Assembly (NCBI GenBank): GCA_963790025.1
Contig: CAWBMP010000005.1
Location: 352,001-416,000 of the forward strand
From: Nitrospirota bacterium
GTDB lineage: Bacteria; Nitrospirota; Thermodesulfovibrionia; Thermodesulfovibrionales; Dissulfurispiraceae
Direction: 5' to 3'
Length of the DNA: 64,000 nucleotides
How positions within the stretch are numbered: the stretch's first letter is position 1; each line of letters begins with the position of its first letter. Shown here in pieces: positions 31,356 through 57,525 of this stretch. The position numbers and the translations under genes were made by a program. The notes beneath the pieces were generated by a model that saw nothing but the letters and a program-made list of their open reading frames with translations, was not told the DNA's origin and searched no databases.

Positions 31356-31778
31356 ATGTTAGACTTTCACGCAATGTGGTTTTGTGTCCTCCTTGTCAAT
31401 TTCCTTGTTCTTCTCTTTATCCTGAATAAACTCCTTTTTCAACCTCTTGCAAGCATTTTTAAGGAGCGGGAAAAAGCAACCATCGGCGCTCTCGATGAGG
31501 CCAAAACCATGACCGAAAAGAAAGATCAGGCCGTAGCAAAAATGAACGTCGAATTGCTCGCGGCGAGAAACGCGGCAAAAGCTGCGTATGATGCTTTGAA
31601 AGAGGAGGGGCAGGCTGCGCAGAAAGAGACATTGTCAAAGGCCGAAGCACAGGCCGTGGCATTGATTGAGCAGGCGAAGAAGGAATTGCAGGCTGAAGCT
31701 GAAAAGGCGAGGGCCGCCTTAAAAGCAGATATCGAAAAATTCTCCGAGGAAATTGTAACAAAACTGGTGAAAGCATGA
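31356..31778 (+). CDS. ATP synthase F0 subunit b'
   Basis: TM plus Ala-rich coiled coil; first gene of the atp cluster. Confidence 0.9.
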   Translation: MLDFHAMWFCVLLVNFLVLLFILNKLLFQPLASIFKEREKATIGALDEAKTMTEKKDQAVAKMNVELLAARNAAKAAYDALKEEGQAAQKETLSKAEAQAVALIEQAKKELQAEAEKARAALKADIEKFSEEIVTKLVKA

Positions 31779-32386
31779 AAAAAATAACACAAACGGAATT
31801 TAAGTCTCATATGTTTCGTTTTTTGAGTTTTATCCTGGCTTGCGGCTTCTGGCTTCTGGCTTCCTCTGCTTATGTTTTTGCTGCTGAAGGAGGAGAGCAT
31901 GCCGGCTCCCCTCTGGAATGGGTCTGGCGTTTTCTTAATTTCGGCATCCTCGTATTTGTGCTTGTAAAATATGGCGGTAAACCCATGAAGGACTATTTCC
32001 AGCAGAGAAAGTCATTGATCGAGAAAAGCATACGGGAGGCGCAGGAGGCTAAAGCGCTTGCTGTAAAGGCACTCGCCGAGGTTGAAGAACGGCTTAAGCT
32101 TAAAGACAAGGAAATAGAGGAAATTAAGGCGGCTTCGGTCAGTTCGGGTGAACGTGAGAAGGCCCGGCTGATTGAGGACAGTGAACGGCTCAAGACAAAA
32201 ATACTTGAACAGGCCAAGTCCAATATCGAGTACGAGGTCAAAAAAGCGAAGGACGTCATCAGGGCAGAAGCGGTAGAGGCTGCAATGCAGCTTGCAGAAG
32301 AAAAAATCAAATCGAAAATGACCAAAGAGGACCAGGACAGGCTGTTGCAGGAATCACTCAAACTGTTAGAGGGTAATAAAAATTGA
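31775..32386 (+). CDS. atpF: ATP synthase F0 subunit b
   Basis: N-terminal extension, WRFLNFGIL TM, coiled coil. Confidence 0.92.
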   Translation: MKKITQTEFKSHMFRFLSFILACGFWLLASSAYVFAAEGGEHAGSPLEWVWRFLNFGILVFVLVKYGGKPMKDYFQQRKSLIEKSIREAQEAKALAVKALAEVEERLKLKDKEIEEIKAASVSSGEREKARLIEDSERLKTKILEQAKSNIEYEVKKAKDVIRAEAVEAAMQLAEEKIKSKMTKEDQDRLLQESLKLLEGNKN

Positions 32387-42677: not shown

Positions 42678-44306
42678 CTAAGATCGTCCGGTCACCCTAA
42701 ACTTGCTCATGTTATGGTTGAGGCTTACCGACAGATTCAATAGGTTGGTCGCCTCCTTATTTATCTGACCGGAGGCAGTGGCTGTTTCCTTTGACACTGT
42801 TGCTACGATCTCAATGTCACTGCTTATATGCTCCGAAACAGTTGACATCTCCTCTGTTGCTGCCGCTATCTGCTCTACCATGGAGTGCAGCCCGCTCACG
42901 CTGTCGAGTATCTTGTTAAGACTTGCCCCCGCTCGAGTGGCGAGGTCCACCCCCACGCTTACCTTTCTTGATCCCTCTTCCATCGATCCTACAGCAGTTT
43001 CCGCCGCCTGTTGTATTGCCGCTATCATATCTCCTATCTCTTTGGCCGAGTTGGTTGTTTTTTCCGCGAGTTTCCTCACTTCATCCGATACCACTGCGAA
43101 TCCCTTGCCCTGCTCCCCTGCACGCGCAGCTTCTATTGCGGCATTTAGCGCAAGAAGATTCGTCTGGTCCGCTATGTCCTTTATCACATTGACAATTTTC
43201 CCTATCGCCTTTGATTTCTCTCCAAGTGACTTCATTGTCTGCGCAAGACCTTCAACCGTATTTGCTATTTCCTGTACCTCCTCCACGGTTTTGTTTACAA
43301 CGTTAGCCCCCTCATTTGCTGTTTTTGAAGTGTCTGTTGCAGCTTCTGATATATTTGAGGCATTTCTTGCTATATCAATAACTGTTTGGGACATTTCTGT
43401 TGAGGCCGCTGCAACCTGTGACGCTCTCATTGTCTGCTCCTCTACACGTTTAGTCATCTGCACAACTGTTGTGGAAAACTCTTCAGACGTGGATGCAAGG
43501 CGACCGGAAGTGTCTAAAAGATTACCTATTATTTCTTTCAGAAACTTCTGCATGTTGTTAATAGCTTCGGCAAGAATGCCTACTTCATCTGCCGACTTTA
43601 TATCCACGTTTTCGAACGATAAATCCCCGCGTGCTATCGATTCAGCTCTTGTAGTCAGATTTGATAAGGGACCTATTATCTTTTTAGTAAGAATGACGTA
43701 AAACCCTATGCATCCCACTATGGAAATCACCGAGACTGTTGCTATTACAATTTTAACCTTAAACATGAAATTCTTTATATTTTCAATTCTGACTTTAAAT
43801 GTTTCCTTCTGTACTTTTATTATTCCGAGCAGTTCTGACCTCACACTTCTCCATTTTGGGGTCTCCGTTTGAACCAGCAATGCGGTTGCTTCCTCTTTCT
43901 TGTCCGAAATTGCAAGTTGCTGGACCTCTGTTTTCAATTTGTCAACTTCGTCCCAGAGTAGTCTTATGTTCCTTAATCTTTCCTGCATGCCGTCCTGAGA
44001 TAGTTTAATGGCTTCGTCGCAGGCTTTAATAAAATCCTCATTAGCGTTCCTATAATTTTCTTTTGCCTTTTGGTCACCAGGGTTTAACAAGACATTTCTT
44101 GTAGCTTGTTCAGTCTGAAGTCCATTAGCATACATATTGTTCAAATCCAGCAATAATGTCTGGTCAATGCGTATTAGATTTTCCGTTTCCGTATTTATTC
44201 TTTCATTAGTGACAAAAGAAAGGCCGATGAGTCCGCTTAAAATTACTATGCCTGCAACTATCGAATACTGCAAAAAATGTTTAATGGTCAAATTAGTCAT
44301 AATCAT
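42678..44306 (-). CDS. Methyl-accepting chemotaxis protein (2 TM, helical sensor, HAMP, signalling domain)
   Basis: [41 protein letters not shown] before ATG 44306. Confidence 0.97.
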
Positions 44307-44397
44307 AGATATCCTCCGCAAAACTTATGTCAAATTTGATCTGGAGTAAAGCATTCTTATTCTATTCCTAATTGCAACGATAAATATAACATAAAGT

Positions 44398-44922
44398 TTA
44401 GCATAATTTATATTTCGTAATGATTTGAGAGCATACTTCCTCCTGCCTAAGATCCCCGCACTCGATTGTGATATCGGCATACTTCCTGTACAGGTCGAAA
44501 CGTTCTTTAAACAGGTCCGCCATGCTCTGGTCCGGGCGTCTGGCAAGGCCCCTCTCGTCAAAATTGGCAACCCTCGCTTCCAAAACAGGCAAGTCCACGT
44601 CAAGAAAAACAATGACACCGAGTGATTTCAGGTGCTGCATGGCAGAATGGCTATATACGGCACTGCCCCCGGTGGCGATTACATGGCTGATGCATCGGAG
44701 GTTTAAAAGAATATCTTCCTCTATCTTGCGCAAGGCCATGTGGCCTTCCATATTGACTATATCCTGAAGGGAACGTCCCTGTGATGTCTGAATGATGACG
44801 TCGGTATCAACAAAATTGCGCGATGTCATTTTGGCCAGAATGACTCCGACCGTGCTCTTGCCTGAACCAGGCATCCCGATTAAAACGATATTGGACTTGT
44901 ACCGGTCCGTTTCACTGCCCAT
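44398..44922 (-). CDS. aroK: Shikimate kinase
   Basis: IGMPGSGKST, VDTD, IATGGS. Confidence 0.9.
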   Translation of the reverse strand: MGSETDRYKSNIVLIGMPGSGKSTVGVILAKMTSRNFVDTDVIIQTSQGRSLQDIVNMEGHMALRKIEEDILLNLRCISHVIATGGSAVYSHSAMQHLKSLGVIVFLDVDLPVLEARVANFDERGLARRPDQSMADLFKERFDLYRKYADITIECGDLRQEEVCSQIITKYKLC

Positions 44923-45268
44923 ATTTCACCTGCGCTCTCTTTCTGCTCTTTGATTTTTGTTTTCTTATTCGCTTCCTTTCGGCGTCTTCAGCTGTAGGTC
45001 CGCCGGACCTGCGCTCGATTGCTTCGGCAAGTTCGCGCCGGGCGAGAAAGCGGTTCACCGATTGACTCCGCTCCCTCATGCATTTTATTTCTATGCCGGT
45101 TGGTATATGCCTTAGATAAACGCAACTGGACGTTTTGTTTACATGCTGCCCGCCTTTTCCTGAAGATTGTATGAATTGCTCCTCGATGTCCTTCTCGGCA
45201 ATTCCGAGTTCCTCCATCTTCTTCCGGAGCCACCTGTTTTTTTCATCGCTGACAGCGAAACTGATCAT
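44912..45268 (-). CDS. Small GGQ peptidyl-tRNA hydrolase / release-factor-like protein (ArfB/mtRF-R-like)
   Basis: SSGKGGQHVNKT, RERSQSVNR, basic C-terminal tail. Confidence 0.9.
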   Translation of the reverse strand: MISFAVSDEKNRWLRKKMEELGIAEKDIEEQFIQSSGKGGQHVNKTSSCVYLRHIPTGIEIKCMRERSQSVNRFLARRELAEAIERRSGGPTAEDAERKRIRKQKSKSRKRAQVKYGQ

Positions 45269-45384
45269 GCTATCCCCGCAAAAAGAACTTTTTTAGTGAT
45301 TATAGCATACAAGAAATCAGACACCGGCATGTCGGTAGCGGTTTGACTGCCGTCTTATCTTATTTTCTGTGCTATCATTTTACT

Positions 45385-45798
45385 ATGCAATTCGAGATAA
45401 TCGATATTTCGGGGGATGTCGGCATTAAAGCATATGGGAACAGCATCTCAGAAGCATACGCGAATGCCGGCATGGGAATGTACAGCCTTATTACTGATCT
45501 CGGTGGCGTCGATGAGCGCGAAACCGTCACTTTCGAAGTCAGCGGAGGTTCCGCGGAGGGTTTGCTTGTCGCCTATCTCAATGAACTGATATTTCGTTTT
45601 GACACCTACGGTTTTATCGGCAGAAGGGTTGAGGTGCCTGACATTTCGGACCGGAGCATACGTGTAATAGTGCACGGCGATGAGTTTGATCCTGAGAGGC
45701 ACGAACGGCGATTGCTTATAAAGGCTGCAACATACCATAATATTAAAGTAAGACATGATGACGGTGCCTGGGAAGTGGAAGTTGTTTTTGATATATAA
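45385..45798 (+). CDS. Archease
   Basis: IDISGDVGIKAYG, IKAATYH, VVFDI; directly upstream of rtcB. Confidence 0.92.
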   Translation: MQFEIIDISGDVGIKAYGNSISEAYANAGMGMYSLITDLGGVDERETVTFEVSGGSAEGLLVAYLNELIFRFDTYGFIGRRVEVPDISDRSIRVIVHGDEFDPERHERRLLIKAATYHNIKVRHDDGAWEVEVVFDI

Positions 45799-45811
45799 AG
45801 GGTAATTTTAC

Positions 45812-47257
45812 ATGATGAATGAGAAGCTCAAAAGAATAGATGAAAACAGGCTTGAAGTGCCTCGTGAATACAAACCGGGCATGAGGACGCACGGCATTAT
45901 CTATGCCGATAGTGTTCTCGAGGAAGTACTGGAGCAGGGCTCTGTGGATCAGGTGGCCAATGTCGCTTCGTTGCCCGGTATTGTAGGAGCTTCAATGGCA
46001 ATGCCGGATGTGCATACCGGGTATGGGTTCCCAATAGGCGGTGTCGCTGCATTTGATCTTAAGGAGGGGGTAATTTCTCCCGGCGGCGTCGGATACGATA
46101 TCAACTGTGGGGTAAGGCTCTTGAGAAGTAATCTTGACAGGGACCACCTGCTGCCGCATGTTAAGGGGCTGATGGACATGCTTTTTAAGGAGGTCCCGGC
46201 TGGTGTGGGGTCAAAAGGAAGGGTCAGGCTGGCGCCTGCAGATGAGGAAAGAGTGCTGCTCAAGGGAGCCGGTTGGGCGGTCGAAAAAGGCTTTGGCGAG
46301 GCGGATGATCTCGATCGGATTGAATCAGGTGGCTGCCTTGAAGGCGCTGATCCATCACTGGTGAGCAAAAAGGCTTATGAAAGGGGCAGGGCGCAGCAGG
46401 GCACACTGGGATCGGGAAATCATTTCCTCGAAATCCAGTATGTCGATATGATATATGATGAAGAGGCCGCAAGGGCGCTGAATCTCTTTGCAAATCAGAT
46501 AACGGTAATGATACATACGGGCTCGCGTGGGTTCGGCCATCAGGTCTGCACCGACTTCCTTGAGGTGATGGCGCGGGCCGCCCAGAAGTACCGCATCGAA
46601 CTTCCCGACAGGGAACTTGCCTGTGCACCCTTCGGCAGTGTCGAGGCGCAGGAGTATCTTGCTGCAATGAAAGCGGCGGCCAATTATGCATGGGCCAACA
46701 GGCAGTGTCTTATGCACTGGGCGCGGGAGGCCTTCATGTCGGTGCTTTCGATCGGGCCTCGTGATCTGGGCATGGCGCTCGTTTACGATGTTGCCCATAA
46801 TATAGCAAAGGTCGAAGAACATACGGTGAACGGGCGGAAGATTAAACTGGTAGTTCACAGAAAAGGCAGCACCAGGGCATTTCCTCCCGGTCATCCGGAA
46901 CTGCCTGCTGCATATCGTGATATTGGGCAGCCCGTGCTAATTCCCGGAGATATGGGGCGGGCGTCGTTTGTCCTTCTGGGAACGGAAAAAGCAATGCAGG
47001 AGACCTATGGTTCTACTTGCCATGGCGCGGGGAGAATGCTTTCCAGGCATCAGGCCATCAGACAGGCAAAGGGGCGTGCTATCTGGAGAGAATTGGCGGA
47101 CAAGGGGATTACAGTGAAATCATCAGGAAGAGAAACACTTGCCGAAGAGATGCCTGAGGCATACAAGGATGTGTCCAGTGTAGTTAATGTAGTTCATAAC
47201 GCAGGTATTTCCAGAAAGGTGGCCCGTCTACGGCCTATAGGTGTCATTAAGGGATGA
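45812..47257 (+). CDS. rtcB: RNA-splicing/repair ligase RtcB (archaeal/eukaryote-like long form)
   Basis: MPDVHTGYGFPIGG, GYDINCG, GNHFLE, HRKG, CHGAGR. Confidence 0.97.
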   Translation: MMNEKLKRIDENRLEVPREYKPGMRTHGIIYADSVLEEVLEQGSVDQVANVASLPGIVGASMAMPDVHTGYGFPIGGVAAFDLKEGVISPGGVGYDINCGVRLLRSNLDRDHLLPHVKGLMDMLFKEVPAGVGSKGRVRLAPADEERVLLKGAGWAVEKGFGEADDLDRIESGGCLEGADPSLVSKKAYERGRAQQGTLGSGNHFLEIQYVDMIYDEEAARALNLFANQITVMIHTGSRGFGHQVCTDFLEVMARAAQKYRIELPDRELACAPFGSVEAQEYLAAMKAAANYAWANRQCLMHWAREAFMSVLSIGPRDLGMALVYDVAHNIAKVEEHTVNGRKIKLVVHRKGSTRAFPPGHPELPAAYRDIGQPVLIPGDMGRASFVLLGTEKAMQETYGSTCHGAGRMLSRHQAIRQAKGRAIWRELADKGITVKSSGRETLAEEMPEAYKDVSSVVNVVHNAGISRKVARLRPIGVIKG

Positions 47258-52893: not shown

Positions 52894-53694
52894 ATGGACG
52901 AACGGGTCACTATCCCCTCCTTGATGAAAAAGAAACAGGCGCAGCAGAAAATTTCGATTATAACTGCCTATGATTACCCTTTTGCTCAAATAGCCGATGA
53001 GGCAGGTGTTGATGCCATTTATGTCGGGGACTCTCTGGGAATTGTTGTACAGGGTCAGGACACTACGCTTCCCGTTACTATGGATGAGATGGTATACCAC
53101 ACCAGGATGGTCTCCAGGGCCGCAAAGAGAGCGATGATTATCGGCGATATGCCGTATCTGTCGTACCAGGTGAGTACAGAGGAAGCAGTGAGGAATGCAG
53201 GAAGATTTCTTAAGGAGGCGGGCGCCCAGGCAGTAAAGCTTGAGGGTGGCAGTGAAGTGGCCCGGACAGTTGAGGCACTGACAAAAATCGGGATCCCTGT
53301 TATGGCGCATATAGGGCTTACTCCACAGGCGATTTATCGTATGGGCGGCTACAGGGTCCAGGGCAGAACGGACGAAGAAGCGAAGAGATTGATTGAGGAT
53401 GCCGGGCTTCTTGAGAGTGCCGGCGCGTTCTCTATTACTCTTGAGGCAATTCCGGCAGCTCTGGCGCAACGGATAACCGGTATGCTTTCGATTCCTACCA
53501 TCGGTATCGGGGCAGGGCCATACTGTGACGGTCAGGTCCTTGTTATTCACGATGTGCTCGGTATGTTTGACCGCTTTGTGCCGAAGTTCGTAAAAAAATA
53601 TGCAAACCTTAAGTCCGACGCTATAGGCGCCGTCAAAAAATACAGGGAAGAGGTAGAAAAAGGAATTTTCCCCGGCCGTGAACATTCGTTCTAA
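52894..53694 (+). CDS. panB: 3-methyl-2-oxobutanoate hydroxymethyltransferase
   Basis: TAYD, VGDSLG, AVKLEGG, HIGLTPQ, IGIGAG. Confidence 0.98.
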   Translation: MDERVTIPSLMKKKQAQQKISIITAYDYPFAQIADEAGVDAIYVGDSLGIVVQGQDTTLPVTMDEMVYHTRMVSRAAKRAMIIGDMPYLSYQVSTEEAVRNAGRFLKEAGAQAVKLEGGSEVARTVEALTKIGIPVMAHIGLTPQAIYRMGGYRVQGRTDEEAKRLIEDAGLLESAGAFSITLEAIPAALAQRITGMLSIPTIGIGAGPYCDGQVLVIHDVLGMFDRFVPKFVKKYANLKSDAIGAVKKYREEVEKGIFPGREHSF

Positions 53695-53696
53695 AA

Positions 53697-53765
53697 AGTG
53701 TCAGTGGCAATGTCAGTGGCAGTAGAGGAATCCTTAAACTGACACTCATCACTTACACTTACACT
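53697..53765. repeat. Tandem-hexamer palindrome (AGTGTC/AGTGGC units)
   Basis: AGTGTC AGTGGC AATGTC AGTGGC ... ACTGAC ACTCATC ACTTAC ACTTAC ACT. Confidence 0.75.
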
Positions 53766-53781
53766 ATAAGGGGGGCCTGGA

Positions 53782-54201
53782 ATGGCAAGTAAGACGATTT
53801 TCGTTTGTGTCCAAAGAGATCTCACTCATCCGATCAGTTGGGCGCTCAGGGAGTTTGAGGGCAAACTGCTTGTTCGTTCTGTGGACAATCTCAAACAACT
53901 TGGAATGGTGTTGGCTGACGTTACGGAAGGATGCACTGTCATTCTCGATTCGATGATAGGGAATGAATCGACCATAGAGTTTGCAAAGAATGTTAAAAAA
54001 GAAAGACCATTGATTAAATTTATTCTTATTGTATCATCAGGCACCAAAAAGGAAGAGGTTGTGGCGCTGATACAGTCCAAGACGGTCAGTGGTGTGCTAA
54101 CGAGGCCTTTTAATGCCGAGCAGATTAGCGATTATATCCACAAGCTGTACGGTTTTCAAAAGAAGGGGGTTCCCTGGTACATGCAGACAGGCTTTAAATA
54201 G
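53782..54201 (+). CDS. Atypical stand-alone receiver (CheY-like) domain protein
   Basis: VILDSMIG, FILIVSS, VLTRPF pattern matches the receiver fold; acidic pocket absent. Confidence 0.6.
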   Translation: MASKTIFVCVQRDLTHPISWALREFEGKLLVRSVDNLKQLGMVLADVTEGCTVILDSMIGNESTIEFAKNVKKERPLIKFILIVSSGTKKEEVVALIQSKTVSGVLTRPFNAEQISDYIHKLYGFQKKGVPWYMQTGFK

Positions 54202-54231
54202 AGGATAAGCTTTTGTTGCCGATGGGATAAT

Positions 54232-54395
54232 TATAATGGAGACTTTAATTATCTCTGACTGGAGGTGCGGCAGTCTTCCACCGTAAACGCCTCGACGGGC
54301 ACGTTAACATCCAGTCTGTAAGCCTCAATCCCTAAGCCCTTTCGGCGACTATCAGGGGACTCGTTATCAAAGAGCCCGATCAGAGCAAGACCTTC
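54232..54395 (+). other. Structured non-coding stretch; possible orphan IS110-family non-coding end or small RNA
   Basis: TATAAT at 54232; GACTGGA/TCCAGTC stem with internal loop; CCCT/AGGG hairpin; CTCTGA/TCAGAG outer pairing. Confidence 0.4.
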
Positions 54396-54400
54396 TTTTC

Positions 54401-55177
54401 CTATGCAGTGGTATTAACTCCATTTGAACTCGTGGTTGCACCGTTTTGTCCTGATTGTCCGTTTAATGTTTCGAGAATATTCGTCAATTGGGATGCCTGG
54501 GTTGAATTTCCGCTTGATGCTTCAAGAAGTTGAACAAGTGAAGACACACTATTACTGTTGGTTCCGTTCCCGAACATTGCCGTCAATATACCGTTGTTTA
54601 CCGAACTTCCCTCTAATACGTTCAATAATTCATCGGAAACATCGTTCGCGGTGGAGTTGGTAACTGTAGTTGTTGGAGTAGCACTTGAGGTCCCTGCTGT
54701 CGTTGCACCAGAGTTTGTTGTGTCTTCCGCGTCTGAGTTACCTCCTTCGTGGTGGTGGTGATGATGTCCGTGTCCTTTCATTGCAGACATATCACTTTCA
54801 ACCTGGTTCAATGCATTACCAACTGCATTCTGTGAAGAAGTTCCAGCAGTAGACGTTCCCTGACTTGTCGTTGTACTTGATGTGGCTGATGTCAAGGCAC
54901 TTACAAGAGCCTGAACATCGTTTTGAAAATTCTGCATATTGCTGCTGGTGCTCGCACTATTAGTCGACTCTCCTTGCTCTGTACCAGACATGTCACTGAG
55001 CAACTGCGTTGCAGACGCCGACAACGCCTGTTCCGATAGGGTCACCTGGTCTTGGTTTCCAGAATTCATCGCACTCTGAAGAGATTGCAAATCATTCTTG
55101 AAGTTATTGAAGTCGGATCTCATTGAATTTTGGGTATTTTGTGTCTGATAGTCACTACCGATTGGTGAAATTGTCAT
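54401..55177 (-). CDS. Ser/Thr/Asn/Gln-rich poly-His hypothetical protein (paralog 1)
   Basis: 258-aa ORF, AGGGGG RBS, conserved blocks shared with 55513..56211. Confidence 0.85.
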   Translation of the reverse strand: MTISPIGSDYQTQNTQNSMRSDFNNFKNDLQSLQSAMNSGNQDQVTLSEQALSASATQLLSDMSGTEQGESTNSASTSSNMQNFQNDVQALVSALTSATSSTTTSQGTSTAGTSSQNAVGNALNQVESDMSAMKGHGHHHHHHEGGNSDAEDTTNSGATTAGTSSATPTTTVTNSTANDVSDELLNVLEGSSVNNGILTAMFGNGTNSNSVSSLVQLLEASSGNSTQASQLTNILETLNGQSGQNGATTSSNGVNTTA

Positions 55178-55217
55178 TTGCCACCCCCTTGTGGAGAAGT
55201 TCTCCTCGTCTTTACTG

Positions 55218-55244
55218 TTATCGTTACTTTTATAAAAAACTTGA
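55218..55244 (-). promoter_or_regulatory. Sigma28 (FliA)-type promoter
   Basis: Minus strand TCAAGTTT-N11-AACGATAA vs consensus TAAAGTTT-N11-GCCGATAA. Confidence 0.65.
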
Positions 55245-55462
55245 ATGTGGATTATAATTTAAGCAGATATTTTGTGTATAGTATTGCTGGACAATTAAAT
55301 ACTCATGAGCACAAGTGACGGCGAGAATGTGTTGCAAAGAATACCGGAGTCTGAAGAAAAAGCTTCCATCCACGCATTCAGAGCAACTCTTTGACAAGGG
55401 CACTTTATTATCTTAAAAGTTGCCTACCGCATATTTTTGAAAATTAACTTTTTATTTAATAA

Positions 55463-55490
55463 TGAGAAAGAGTTCCCCTTCTCTTTCTCA
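55463..55490 (-). terminator. Hairpin downstream of paralog 2
   Basis: TGAGAAAGAG / CTCTTTCTCA 10-bp stem, AT-rich flank. Confidence 0.55.
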
Positions 55491-55512
55491 CTTTTCGAAA
55501 TAATTCAAATCC

Positions 55513-56211
55513 CTACAGTGTTGAATTAACAGTTCCGTCGTTGTTTTGAGACTGCTCTTCTTCAACGTCTGAAACCAGAGAAGAAGCAGTAGTACTGGAC
55601 AGTCCACCAAGCATTGACATCAAGGAAGAAATAGTGATGCTATTGCCGGAGTTGCCGGTTGTATTGGAGCCATTTGCCGAAACAATACTGCCGCTGTTTT
55701 GAGACAGTGAGCTAAGCATCGACATCAAGGATGAAACGGTGTTGCTAATGTCGGAGTTGTATGTTGTATTGGAGCCGTTCGTTGAAACAGAGGCTTTCGC
55801 ATTGTTATGGTGATGATGGTGACCATGCCCTTTCATGCCGGAGAGATCACTTTCGACTTGGCTCAAGGCGCCCGATACTGAACTCTGCGACGCAGTGCCC
55901 GAACTCTGACTCGCTGATGTCAACGCACTCTGAAGGACCTGCAGATCATTTTGAAGATTCTGCATATTGTTGTTTCCCGAATTCTGCCCCTGATTAGTGT
56001 TACCGGATGCCTGTCCTTGGGTGTTGTTTGACAAGTCACTTTGTATTTGACTCAACGACTGGGATAAGGCATTTTCCGATATCGTAACCTGGTCCTGGTC
56101 TCCTGAATTCAACGCAGTCTGAAGAGCTTTCACATTTCTGCGAAAAGTCTGAAAGGAGCTCCTTGCAGAGTTTTGATTCTGATTGTTGCTGTCTAAAGGT
56201 TGTATTGACAT
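55513..56211 (-). CDS. Ser/Thr/Asn/Gln-rich poly-His hypothetical protein (paralog 2)
   Basis: 232-aa ORF, AAGGAGG RBS, conserved blocks shared with 54401..55177. Confidence 0.85.
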   Translation of the reverse strand: MSIQPLDSNNQNQNSARSSFQTFRRNVKALQTALNSGDQDQVTISENALSQSLSQIQSDLSNNTQGQASGNTNQGQNSGNNNMQNLQNDLQVLQSALTSASQSSGTASQSSVSGALSQVESDLSGMKGHGHHHHHNNAKASVSTNGSNTTYNSDISNTVSSLMSMLSSLSQNSGSIVSANGSNTTGNSGNSITISSLMSMLGGLSSTTASSLVSDVEEEQSQNNDGTVNSTL

Positions 56212-56264
56212 TCTTCTTAACCTCCTTTCTTATAAAGATAACAAAAGATGACATGAAACAGAAG

Positions 56265-56279
56265 GCAATTTGCATGCCA
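56265..56279 (-). promoter_or_regulatory. Sigma54 (-24/-12) promoter
   Basis: Minus strand TGGCATG-CAAA-TTGC, exact spacing of TGGCACG-N4-TTGC. Confidence 0.8.
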
Positions 56280-56586
56280 AATAGTTGATAAGACAACAAA
56301 ATGTATGATTTTGATGGTATGATGCAACTGCACTCTGCCTAATTATCGGCAGACATAAAGATTCTTAACTTGGTAAAAAGCTATCGGTAACTATGACATT
56401 TGTTAAAACATGAGATTGTTTCTTATGATTGCTGATTCTTAACCGGGCAACATTTTACCTTTAATTGATTCCAACAGGGAAAAAATTTCCTGCACCCCGG
56501 CAGAGGAATTGCAGTATAATTCCATAAAATCCAAAAATTGTTTTGATTCATTGTAACCTTCTGATTATCCTGCTCGACTTAAAATA

Positions 56587-56739
56587 GATGAGTTTGCTTA
56601 TGCAGACAGTTGGCTGCTCAGCAGATTGGGGAATCTCCTCAGGAGACGGCGAAGCGGAATACTGCCACCACCGCTGCCATCGGATTTCGGTGCCGAGCCT
56701 TCTACTTATTACCCGGCTCTGCCGCCGCCGCCGCAATAA
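56587..56739 (+). pseudogene. Decayed fragment of a probable glycine-zipper family lipoprotein gene
   Basis: CRQLAAQQIGESPQETAKRNTATTAAIG in one frame joined to a YYPALPPPPQ* tail in another; no start codon. Confidence 0.45.
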
Positions 56740-56835
56740 CTATAAGTTGGACGAAATGTGTTTGTTGATCGTTGAATGATCACAAGGGGACCTGGCAACA
56801 CGAGTTAGAAAATATGAACCGGGACGTGGTTTCCA

Positions 56836-57525
56836 TTGAACAAAATCGAAATAGTTCAAAGAATAATTGATAGGAAAAAAGCCCGCACATACCTGGAAAT
56901 AGGGGTATATCAAGGAGATAATTTTTTCCCAATCAAAGCAAAACGAAAAATTGCAGTTGACCCAAAATTCGGGTTCTCAAGAAAATACAGAATAAAGTGG
57001 ATTCTAAAAAATGTACATAATTTTAAAGCAAAGTACTACGAGTTCAGTAGCGATGGCTTCTTTTCATCTATTAGCTCAATTGATCGTTTCGACGTGGTGT
57101 TTATTGATGGGTTGCATACTTACCGGCAATCATTGAGAGACACCATTAACTCCTTGGGCAACCTAAATGAAAATGGCATAATTGTTTTGCATGATTGCAA
57201 TCCACCAAATCAGGTAGCAGCGTATCCGGCAGAGTCCCTTGACGCTGCTGCTGCCTTGAAGTTACCTGGATGGAATGGAGAGTGGTGTGGAGAGGTATGG
57301 AAGACTATCTGCTACTTAAGAAGTCAGATGAGGGATTTGCGAGTATTTGTGTTAGATTGCGATTTTGGATTAGGAATGGTGATGAAAGGAGCGCCTGATA
57401 ATTTGCTGAACTTGAGTGAAGAGGTATTGAACAAAATGACTTATGAAGATTTATTGAGAGAAAGAAGAGACCTTCTTAACTTAAAAGATGAAAGCTACCT
57501 GTTCGAATTTTTGGAGACGATCTGA
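56836..57525 (+). CDS. Class I SAM-dependent methyltransferase (Methyltransf_24-like)
   Basis: YLEIGV, AVDP, FDVVFIDGLH, IVLHDCNP; AT-rich, TTG start. Confidence 0.85.
   Translation: MNKIEIVQRIIDRKKARTYLEIGVYQGDNFFPIKAKRKIAVDPKFGFSRKYRIKWILKNVHNFKAKYYEFSSDGFFSSISSIDRFDVVFIDGLHTYRQSLRDTINSLGNLNENGIIVLHDCNPPNQVAAYPAESLDAAAALKLPGWNGEWCGEVWKTICYLRSQMRDLRVFVLDCDFGLGMVMKGAPDNLLNLSEEVLNKMTYEDLLRERRDLLNLKDESYLFEFLETI

Follow-up and report, generated by a model that had tools for sequence, protein, structure and literature searches.

What is encoded by the two neighbouring low-complexity genes, here called A and B, that lie on the minus strand of a 64,000-nucleotide stretch of DNA (positions 352,001 to 416,000 of contig CAWBMP010000005.1, assembly GCA_963790025.1; hereafter the window) from a Nitrospirota bacterium of the Dissulfurispiraceae? 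By sequence comparison, both belong to a widespread, unnamed and uncharacterised protein family, and this family is very probably a member of the flagellar regulon. The fuller reading, according to which A and B are tandem paralogs of an accessory family of that regulon whose products are exported and bind metal, has about an even chance of being correct. An earlier note, made from the window alone, had already assigned the genes to the motility regulon. The window itself gives no hint of this, and all flagellar genes of the genome are located on another contig; the assignment is supported by promoter sequences, by co-occurrence with FlhA and by two loci inside flagellar clusters, all described below.

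The two open reading frames (ORFs) of 258 and 232 amino acids (aa) that the earlier note had placed at the coordinates given in Table 1 were recovered on the minus strand, and the sequence blocks it had listed as common to both were reproduced by BLASTP, which gave 48% identity over the first 138 residues (E 1e-31) and identifies the proteins as paralogs. Their composition proved to be as described: Cys and Trp are absent from both, Ser, Thr, Asn, Gln and Gly together make up 60% of A and 62% of B, both carry a His tract, and the N-termini read MTISPIGS (A) and MSIQPLDS (B), with the C-termini listed in Table 1. The net charge is -18 for A and -8 for B. Since the highest Kyte-Doolittle mean over 19 residues stays below 1.0 in either protein, neither has a membrane helix or a Sec-type signal; the absence of a Sec signal had also been claimed in the earlier note. 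Scans with the Pfam and NCBIfam models placed neither A nor B in a family above cut-off, in line with the earlier description of the proteins as uncharacterised.

A third paralog was found on another contig of the same genome. With a first, narrow profile, 2-6 family matches were obtained in each of 9 other genomes of the genus and 0 in 31 genomes from other genera of the same family and order, and a word-indexed search of 5.8 billion proteins returned only 5 relatives. The 16 loci found in named records all came from metagenome-assembled genomes labelled Nitrospirota, Nitrospirae or Dissulfurispiraceae. From the loci of related genomes, 24 distinct proteins were extracted, hereafter the close relatives. 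A profile of 28 sequences (A2), run against 1.84 billion cluster representatives, detected 159 of these at E<=1e-3 and 50 at E<=1e-10; the distant hits were mostly 140-170 aa long and aligned end to end. Comparison of the window subfamily with 87 distant members by hhalign gave a probability of 98.8% (E 4.5e-17). A metagenome scan with a narrower alignment (A4) detected at least 378 relatives and returned 80 loci, comprising 81 family ORFs, 73 of them complete. The names given to relatives in the source records were either 'hypothetical protein' or evident misnomers, and the nearest clusters of the protein Atlas, from Acidobacteriota, Verrucomicrobiota, Pseudomonadota and Planctomycetota, were all 'hypothetical'. 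No paper on the family was found in a literature search with subscription journals outside its coverage. Family genes are frequently duplicated locally (L007/L020 on G009:C6, L087, L103, L109 and L113), with one divergent pair that has a single common enhancer region and several tandem pairs, so that the tandem arrangement in the window can be regarded as a recurrent feature of the family.

Gene B is preceded by a predicted sigma-54 promoter and two enhancer-like sites (Table 1). Of the 24 close family genes, 22 have the same layout, which consists of the sigma-54 motif GG[CT]A[CT]-N5-TTGC and, further upstream, a pair of palindromic sites of 13 bp each (GGAAA-N3-TT[TG]CC), spaced mostly by 31-32 bp. 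The sigma-54 motif lies 50-69 nucleotides (nt) before the ATG in 21 cases and 17 nt before a doubtful start codon in the 22nd. Shuffled controls yielded, per 24 sequences, 0.06 sigma-54 motifs within 200 nt of the ATG and 0.0 site pairs. The two exceptions are gene A and the gene at locus L029. The same arrangement is seen in six members that are more distant and come from other families of Nitrospirota, and a AAGGAGGT or GGAGGTGA word, of the type of the ribosome-binding site (RBS) of gene B, is present in 15 of the 24 family upstream regions.

The host genome is that of a flagellate bacterium, with four flagellin-like genes, two flgM genes, flhA, fliS and a genuine fliK, which are all located on contig C4, and with 25 matches to sigma-54 activator domains, two of them inside the flagellar cluster, in the regions of C4:118239 and C4:122498. 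A position weight matrix (PWM), trained on 38 family sites from other genomes only, served to order by score the strict sigma-54 motifs of the host genome that are followed by an ORF, 31 in all. First place went to gene B (22.1 bits), followed by the flgF-flgG-flgA operon (16.1 and 11.7 bits, sites 20 bp apart), an unrelated gene (16.1 bits) and, in fourth place, the fliK-led hook operon fliK-flgD-flgE (14.3 bits). Conservation of the flgF site pair (GGTATAATTTTCC and GGTAAAATTTTCC), along with the sigma-54 promoter of that operon, was seen in 8 of 9 genomes of the genus. The 420 nt examined in the remaining one contained the promoter and lacked the sites. We read these matches as the mark of one flagellar sigma-54 activator, or two close ones, that would serve the rod and hook operons as well as the family genes.

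The flgF loci of the genus (L063-L071) also contain a small conserved ORF just upstream of flgF, which encodes about 65 aa, is rich in Glu and Lys and ends in ...GIDIEV. Its end falls exactly in the conserved enhancer pair, it has a sigma-28 promoter of its own in some genomes, and in three genomes it is inverted, together with the site pair, relative to flgF. Sites of the same type were also found upstream of pseB, a flagellin-glycosylation-type gene, and of pilM. The upstream region of pilM-pilN-pilO, which is located outside the window at about 164022-164400 of contig C5, holds three regulatory elements, namely a perfect sigma-28 site (TAAAGTTT-N11-TCCGATAA, 15/15), an enhancer-like site (GGAAATATTTGCC) and divergent sigma-54 motifs. 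The flagellar hierarchy may therefore extend to the assembly genes of type IV pili.

A different promoter class was found among the metagenome relatives. The flagellin promoters of the window's own genome are textbook sigma-28 promoters (TAAAGTTT-N11-TCCGATAA), and sites with at least 14 of 15 matching positions occur 10 times in this genome as compared to 0.3 times in shuffles. The same form is seen at a family gene of a Nitrospirota genome from another family (L049; TTAAGTTT-N11-TCCGATAA). The 300-nt upstream regions of 69 non-redundant metagenome relatives were scanned for TAAA-N14-16-GCCGATAA (12 positions). Matches at 11 or more positions were obtained for 11 of the 69 relatives and at 10 or more for 21, whereas the wrong strand of the same regions gave none at either threshold, shuffled sequences gave on average 0.15 and 2.15 per 69, and 228 other ORFs from the same loci gave 2 and 7. 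All 11 strong matches are matches to TAAA-N15-GCCGATAA and are situated 66-105 nt before the ATG. Strict sigma-54 motifs were found for 4 of the 69 relatives, as compared to 0.15 in shuffles.

The phyletic distribution was determined with a broad profile (A3) in an even sample of 401 genomes from 162 genera of the phylum Nitrospirota. The family was detected in 18 genomes and 11 genera, including one weak partial match that is possibly false (G206), and FlhA in 225 genomes. The earlier note had named a family common in genomes without flagellar genes as an observation that would count against its view; every one of the 18 family-positive genomes has FlhA. The rule extends to bacterial families in which flagella are rare. 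In family f5, the only FlhA-positive genome out of five (G268) is also the family-positive one. The family-positive genome of f23 (G114) is one of two with FlhA among 12, that of f6 (G410) one of two among four, and the seven of f25 all fall within the 17 FlhA-positive genomes among 64. With each of seven bacterial families counted as one event, such co-occurrence would arise by chance with a probability of roughly 1e-3, a figure that is rough because of kinship.

Gene neighbourhoods were inspected in 28 longer metagenome loci, with 95/160 neighbouring ORFs scanned. At locus L115, a family gene is immediately followed by flgD, a 'Flagellar_put' gene and flgE, and at L113 two family genes adjoin two flagellin genes and glycosyltransferase genes. 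No conserved partner gene was found beside the family genes in either the close-relative or the metagenome loci, their neighbours being mostly unrelated. A dedicated regulator encoded next door was considered and rejected, as the neighbours differ by locus: an NtrC-type activator is encoded about 3 kb from the family gene at L024, and OmpR-type pairs are found at others. The genus also has a subfamily with extra hairpin repeats (260-380 aa; L030, L032, L034 and L038), whose gene in every case immediately follows an NTPase_1 (PF03266) gene; at three of these four loci it adjoins a divergent pair of genes for a HAMP histidine kinase and an OmpR-type regulator, and once a Metal_resist (PF13801) gene.

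Members of the family are 125-390 aa long and share a common plan. They start with a short Ser/Ile-rich motif, M-[ST]-[IV]-x-[SGP]-[IVL]-S (23 of 24 close relatives, 66 of 73 complete metagenome members), end with [ILVF]-[NDS]-x-x-[AVTLIS] (22 of 24 and 66 of 73) and mostly carry a His tract directly after helix 4 (20 of 24 and 55 of 73), which is followed by a low-complexity tail, rich in Ser, Thr and Asn, whose length varies between members. The hairpin consensus of the distant members reads D-F-x-A-L-Q-S-A-L-Q-S-G-D-L-x-x-A-Q-x-A-F-x-x-L-Q-x-D, and the window subfamily has a 7-residue insert in the first turn, in the region S-G-N-Q-D-Q-V-T-L-S-E. Residues 20-61 of protein B are repeated at 83-124 (40% identity, E 3e-9), and the number of long hairpins ranges from one in some members to three or four in others. 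No conserved His, Met or Cys was found within the helices in the family alignments.

AlphaFold2 predicted helices at residues 9-36, 39-65, 80-102 and 107-127 of protein B, with a predicted local distance difference test (pLDDT) score of about 70-85, and a disordered tail with a pLDDT below 50 (mean pLDDT 59.7, predicted template modelling score (pTM) 0.43); the earlier proposal of helices separated by disordered linkers is supported by this model. The four helices were predicted with a pLDDT of about 90 (pTM 0.52) in a distant member of 153 aa, for which 87 aligned sequences were available. The N-terminal part of the protein is predicted to be a four-helix bundle that is built from two homologous hairpins. 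Foldseek gave no match in the PDB at E<=0.001. The best partners found by VIA-align were PsbQ/CyanoQ, cytochrome c' and designed bundles (Z 10-11, root-mean-square deviation about 3 A, about 100 residues), at a level where helical bundles (Z under about 13) may share the arrangement only, and comparison of the family profile with the sequences of solved structures retrieved recombinant His-tags only. The modelled fold is a generic up-down four-helix bundle, and the structural matches are not specific.

By sequence analysis, gene B is transcribed in this lineage from a sigma-54 promoter that is activated from the GGAAA-N3-TTTCC pair, with sites of this kind also at the flgF and fliK-flgD-flgE operons; in other phyla the family is driven by the flagellar sigma-28 factor. 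The further course of events is an inference: the proteins would be made late in flagellar assembly, pass unfolded through the flagellar type III export gate and function extracellularly or at the surface of the flagellum, and the His tract could bind Ni, Zn, Co, Cu or another divalent metal. The type III gate appears to be the most likely route of export, because the proteins have no Sec or Tat signal, no Cys and disordered yet conserved termini, and because variability in copy number and repeats is typical of surface or secreted proteins. The steps differ in their strength. Export through the flagellum is put forward tentatively, as somewhat less than an even bet, and for metal binding by the His tract in vivo the case for and against is evenly balanced. 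Both remain hypotheses drawn from composition, as does the self-assembly that the earlier note had raised as a possibility.

Several observations weigh against this reading. The main reservation concerns the spacing of the enhancer-like sites, which is 20 bp at flgF and 31-32 bp at most family genes, so that a related but different activator may act at flgF. Gene A has neither a sigma-54 promoter nor an enhancer pair, and its sigma-28-like site is weak when taken alone and not significant genome-wide, since 12 sites of that score occur in the genome and 7.7 in shuffles. Common control of the close relatives by sigma-28 was rejected, as the motifs are not conserved among them, and 58 of the 69 distant members lack a strong sigma-28 match. 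The three family genes of the genome are situated away from the flagellar clusters, on contigs C5 and C2 as opposed to C4; of the 28 longer metagenome loci, no more than 2 had flagellar structural genes within 3 kb. Because related genomes share traits, the co-occurrence test makes the cases look more independent than they are, and the presence of the family in only 18 of the 225 FlhA-positive genomes sampled marks it as an accessory that is dispensable for the flagellum. The His tract is missing from 4 of 24 close and 18 of 73 metagenome members. Finally, flagellar export signals are not recognisable from sequence.

The main competing explanation is that the proteins stay in the cytoplasm as flagellar assembly or regulatory factors. 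The bundle would then bind an export substrate, the gate, a sigma factor or the sigma-54 activator, in the manner of the chaperones FliS, FliT and FlgN or of the feedback regulators FlgM and FliX, with the His tract and tail modulating this binding. The evidence for the flagellar regulon fits such a factor just as well, the bundle is small, helical, soluble and acidic, and the presence of the genome's strongest enhancer sites at a family gene might be expected of a feedback component. We nevertheless consider this explanation unlikely: 2-6 matches per genome in the genus, one to four copies of the second hairpin and highly variable, low-complexity tails are unusual for a stoichiometric regulator or chaperone, canonical FlgM (two copies), FliS, FliK and a FlaG-like protein (weak, below cut-off) are already encoded elsewhere in the genome, and no partner gene consistently adjoins the family genes.

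A cytoplasmic metal-stress or storage protein, induced through sigma-54, buffering Ni, Zn, Co or Cu like the Hpn-like proteins and linked to flagella by coincidence, would account for the near-invariance of the His tract. It would also account for occasional metal- or envelope-stress neighbours such as the pairs of HAMP histidine kinase and OmpR-type genes near L032, L034, L038 and L039, Metal_resist (PF13801) in L034, NikR and a CusB/HlyD-like protein in L089, a YHS domain in L135 and LTXXQ in L104. These neighbours amount to a handful among some 40 loci and differ by locus, and the sigma-28 promoters (11/69 versus 2/228 in controls), the presence of FlhA in 18 of 18 family-positive genomes, the enhancer sites that the family shares with flgF and fliK and the conserved N- and C-terminal motifs would all be left unexplained, which makes this possibility very improbable. 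The low-complexity composition and several overlapping ORFs on the opposite strand could suggest that A and B are spurious ORFs in low-complexity DNA. Given that the reading frame and termini are conserved across many genomes and phyla, with strong RBSs, promoters at a fixed distance and confidently predicted helices, this idea is for practical purposes refuted.

The closest named family is YjfB_motility (PF14070, 'putative motility protein'), whose members, like those of the family described here, are small, soluble and without signal peptide, and whose function is unknown. The available text of PMC11607428 refers to YjfB as 'an uncharacterized small protein' in the sigma-28 sub-module of flagellar superoperons. 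A comparison set of 12 members from Nitrospirota genomes (A5) was assembled. These proteins start with M-[ED]-I-S-G-I-S or similar and end with G-x-x-[IV]-[DN]-[IVLM]-x-[VA], terminal motifs that are both also found in the present family, and in 4 of the 12 the upstream region matches the sigma-28 pattern at no fewer than 11 of 12 positions, as is the case for 11 of the 69 family members. In termini and regulon the two groups agree. In contrast to the long hairpins, His tract and long disordered tail of the family, YjfB-type proteins are 60-72 aa long, have a single short helical stretch and lack a His tract. The PF14070 model gave no match in the whole genome at E<=10 and none for A or B at E<=1 (cut-off 27 bits), and hhalign comparisons of the family alignments A4, A2 and A6 with A5 gave a probability of 0.06-0.5%, with only the C-terminal 11 columns aligned (E 0.12). 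As both the hidden Markov model (HMM) and the profile-profile tests were negative, the family was not filed under PF14070. The 14 genomes with a PF14070 match include none of the 18 that carry the family; about 0.6 overlaps would be expected by chance, so that this absence is not significant. The family may be a long cousin of YjfB or share its terminal signals only. A broader proposal, in which both would form a pan-bacterial, so far unrecognised class of flagellar type III cargo, with the termini as export or docking signals and the bundle and His tract released into the surroundings or onto the filament as a metal-binding module, appears rather unlikely.

The anti-sigma-28 factor FlgM (PF04316) resembles the family in being encoded in the flagellar regulon, small, free of Cys and Trp, rich in Ser, Thr and Gln, partly disordered and in starting with M-x-I; a further resemblance, as we take it, is the motif D-x-V-x-L-S-x-x-A. 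FlgM differs by its fold prediction and by the His tract of the family, and identity with FlgM was rejected, as the Pfam scan at E<=1 listed no FlgM hit for either protein and the genome has two canonical FlgM genes at other positions (C4:199970-200134 and C4:80409-80573, both above the cut-off of the model). One further match to this model on C4 is sub-threshold (15 bits), and none lies in the window. The gene order at L115 raised the possibility of FliK, which was likewise rejected, since the family member at that locus has no Flg_hook (PF02120) domain; the real FliK of the window's genome is encoded at C4:108716-110440 (Flg_hook E 8.6e-14). Replacement of FlaG or FliS was discarded as well, FliS being present and a weak FlaG-like match (18.8 bits, cut-off 23.8) being found beside the flagellin genes.

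The predicted fold of the N-terminal 110-130 residues resembles that of PsbQ/CyanoQ/MPH2 and of cytochrome b562/c'. These families differ in that they are lumenal or periplasmic, have signal peptides and show no flagellar link; no haem or metal ligands are conserved inside the helices of the family described here. Neither A nor B hit MPH2 (PF20675) or DUF4363 (PF14276) at E<=1, and B scored 16.7 bits with CYP38_PsbQ-like (cut-off 27). The MPH2 cut-off of 29 was barely passed by 2 of 37 distant members (30.5 and 30.8), and members with multiple repeats reached up to 36 with MPH2 and up to 37.9 with DUF4363. These marginal hits are attributable to the recurring hairpin motif A-L-x-S-G-D-x-x-x-A-x-x-A-F.

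Like the family, the flagellum-dependent secreted proteins of Campylobacter (FspA, CiaI, FlaC and others) are small, belong to the flagellar regulon and have no Sec signal, as far as the available text of PMC5223770 describes them; no link to the family was established for CJM1_0791 and CJM1_0395, as these are presented in that text. Among the named Atlas clusters related to flagella, Cj0814 (PF28266, 'flagellar-dependent secreted protein') was the nearest, with feature scores of 0.77 and 0.80, which are leads only, as are all scores below 0.9 (0.8 is reached by one third of shuffled proteins); three named clusters scored higher. A histidine tract is shared with His-rich metal-binding proteins (Hpn-like; ZraP/CpxP/Spy, PF13801/PF07813). 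The dependence of zraP on sigma-54 recalls the sigma-54 promoter of the family, and PF13801 or PF07813 genes are sometimes neighbours of family genes. ZraP/CpxP/Spy differ in that A and B give no HMM match and have no signal peptide; in tests with PF13801 and PF07813, a single distant member reached a sub-threshold 16.9 bits. The comparison with these proteins leaves the flagellar promoters and the phyletic pattern of the family unexplained.

Table 1. Genes A and B and the putative regulatory elements associated with them (positions refer to the window; bit scores are those of the PWM).
Feature	Position	Strand	Remarks
Gene A	54401..55177	(-)	258 aa; paralog of B; HGHHHHHH at 136-143; C-terminal GVNTTA
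Sigma-28-like element TCAAGTTT-N11-AACGATAA	55218..55244	(-)	ends 40 nt before the ATG of gene A; 13/15
Hairpin, 9-bp stem	55464..55489	(-)	24 nt after the stop of B; no clear T run
Gene B	55513..56211	(-)	232 aa; predicted bundle at about residues 9-127; HGHHHHH at 129-135; C-terminal TVNSTL
RBS of gene B	56221..56226	(-)	AGGAGG
Predicted sigma-54 promoter of gene B	56264..56279	(-)	TGGCAT-N5-TTGCC; GG 67 nt before the ATG
Sigma-28-like element TTAAGAAT-N10-GCCGATAA	56343..56368	(-)	upstream of the sigma-54 promoter of B
Proximal enhancer-like site GTAAAATGTTGCC	56446..56458	.	9.9 bits; 32 bp from the distal site
Distal enhancer-like palindrome GGAAATTTTTTCC	56478..56490	.	22.1 bits

The sigma-28-like element upstream of B has an exact -10 octamer, a poor -35 region and an unsuitable spacing; it is possible that this element and the one upstream of A are functional. 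Gene A may be transcribed either by read-through from B past the hairpin between the two genes or from its own weak promoter, and the hairpin, which was not among the calls of a terminator scan, may attenuate this read-through. A scan for sigma-70 promoters remained at chance level, and a search of positions 53600-57000 with Rfam gave a single row at chance level (E 0.51).

The DNA that surrounds A and B in the window is of a housekeeping type and includes the ATP synthase operon, lptCAB-rpoN-hpf-rapZ, secDF, recJ, panB and RtcB with archease. Its only motility-related neighbours are a gene for a methyl-accepting chemotaxis protein (42678-44321) and a degenerate receiver-domain ORF (53782-54201, plus strand). 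The latter encodes 139 aa, is convergent with gene A and shows receiver similarity at sub-threshold level only (PF00072, 18.9 bits versus a cut-off of 30.2; CheY, E 5e-4), which gives it the look of a degenerate receiver or a pseudo-receiver. Archease and the RNA ligase RtcB are encoded as a pair (45343-47257, plus strand) that adjoins a small gene with an RF-1 domain (ArfB-like; 44912-45268, minus strand) in a corner devoted to RNA repair and ribosome rescue, and two successive genes for ATP synthase b-type subunits (140 and 203 aa; 31356-32386, plus strand) are followed by that of the delta subunit.

A few small genes in the flagellar regulons of model bacteria have no known role, examples being yjfB of Bacillus and flxA of E. 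coli; outside these models the accessory part of the regulon is almost unexplored. The family of A and B is absent from the curated libraries searched, yet it is found in several phyla, has hundreds of metagenome relatives and is preceded by textbook flagellar promoters. GGAAA-N3-TTTCC provides a usable enhancer motif for that level of the flagellar hierarchy in Nitrospirota which depends on sigma-54. The family itself is a defined and abundant candidate for a new export substrate or for a link between motility and metal handling, and it may bear on the meaning of the terminal motifs that it has in common with YjfB-type proteins. If the two did form a shared class of flagellar cargo, swimming cells would use the flagellum to secrete a metal-capturing or surface-conditioning protein.

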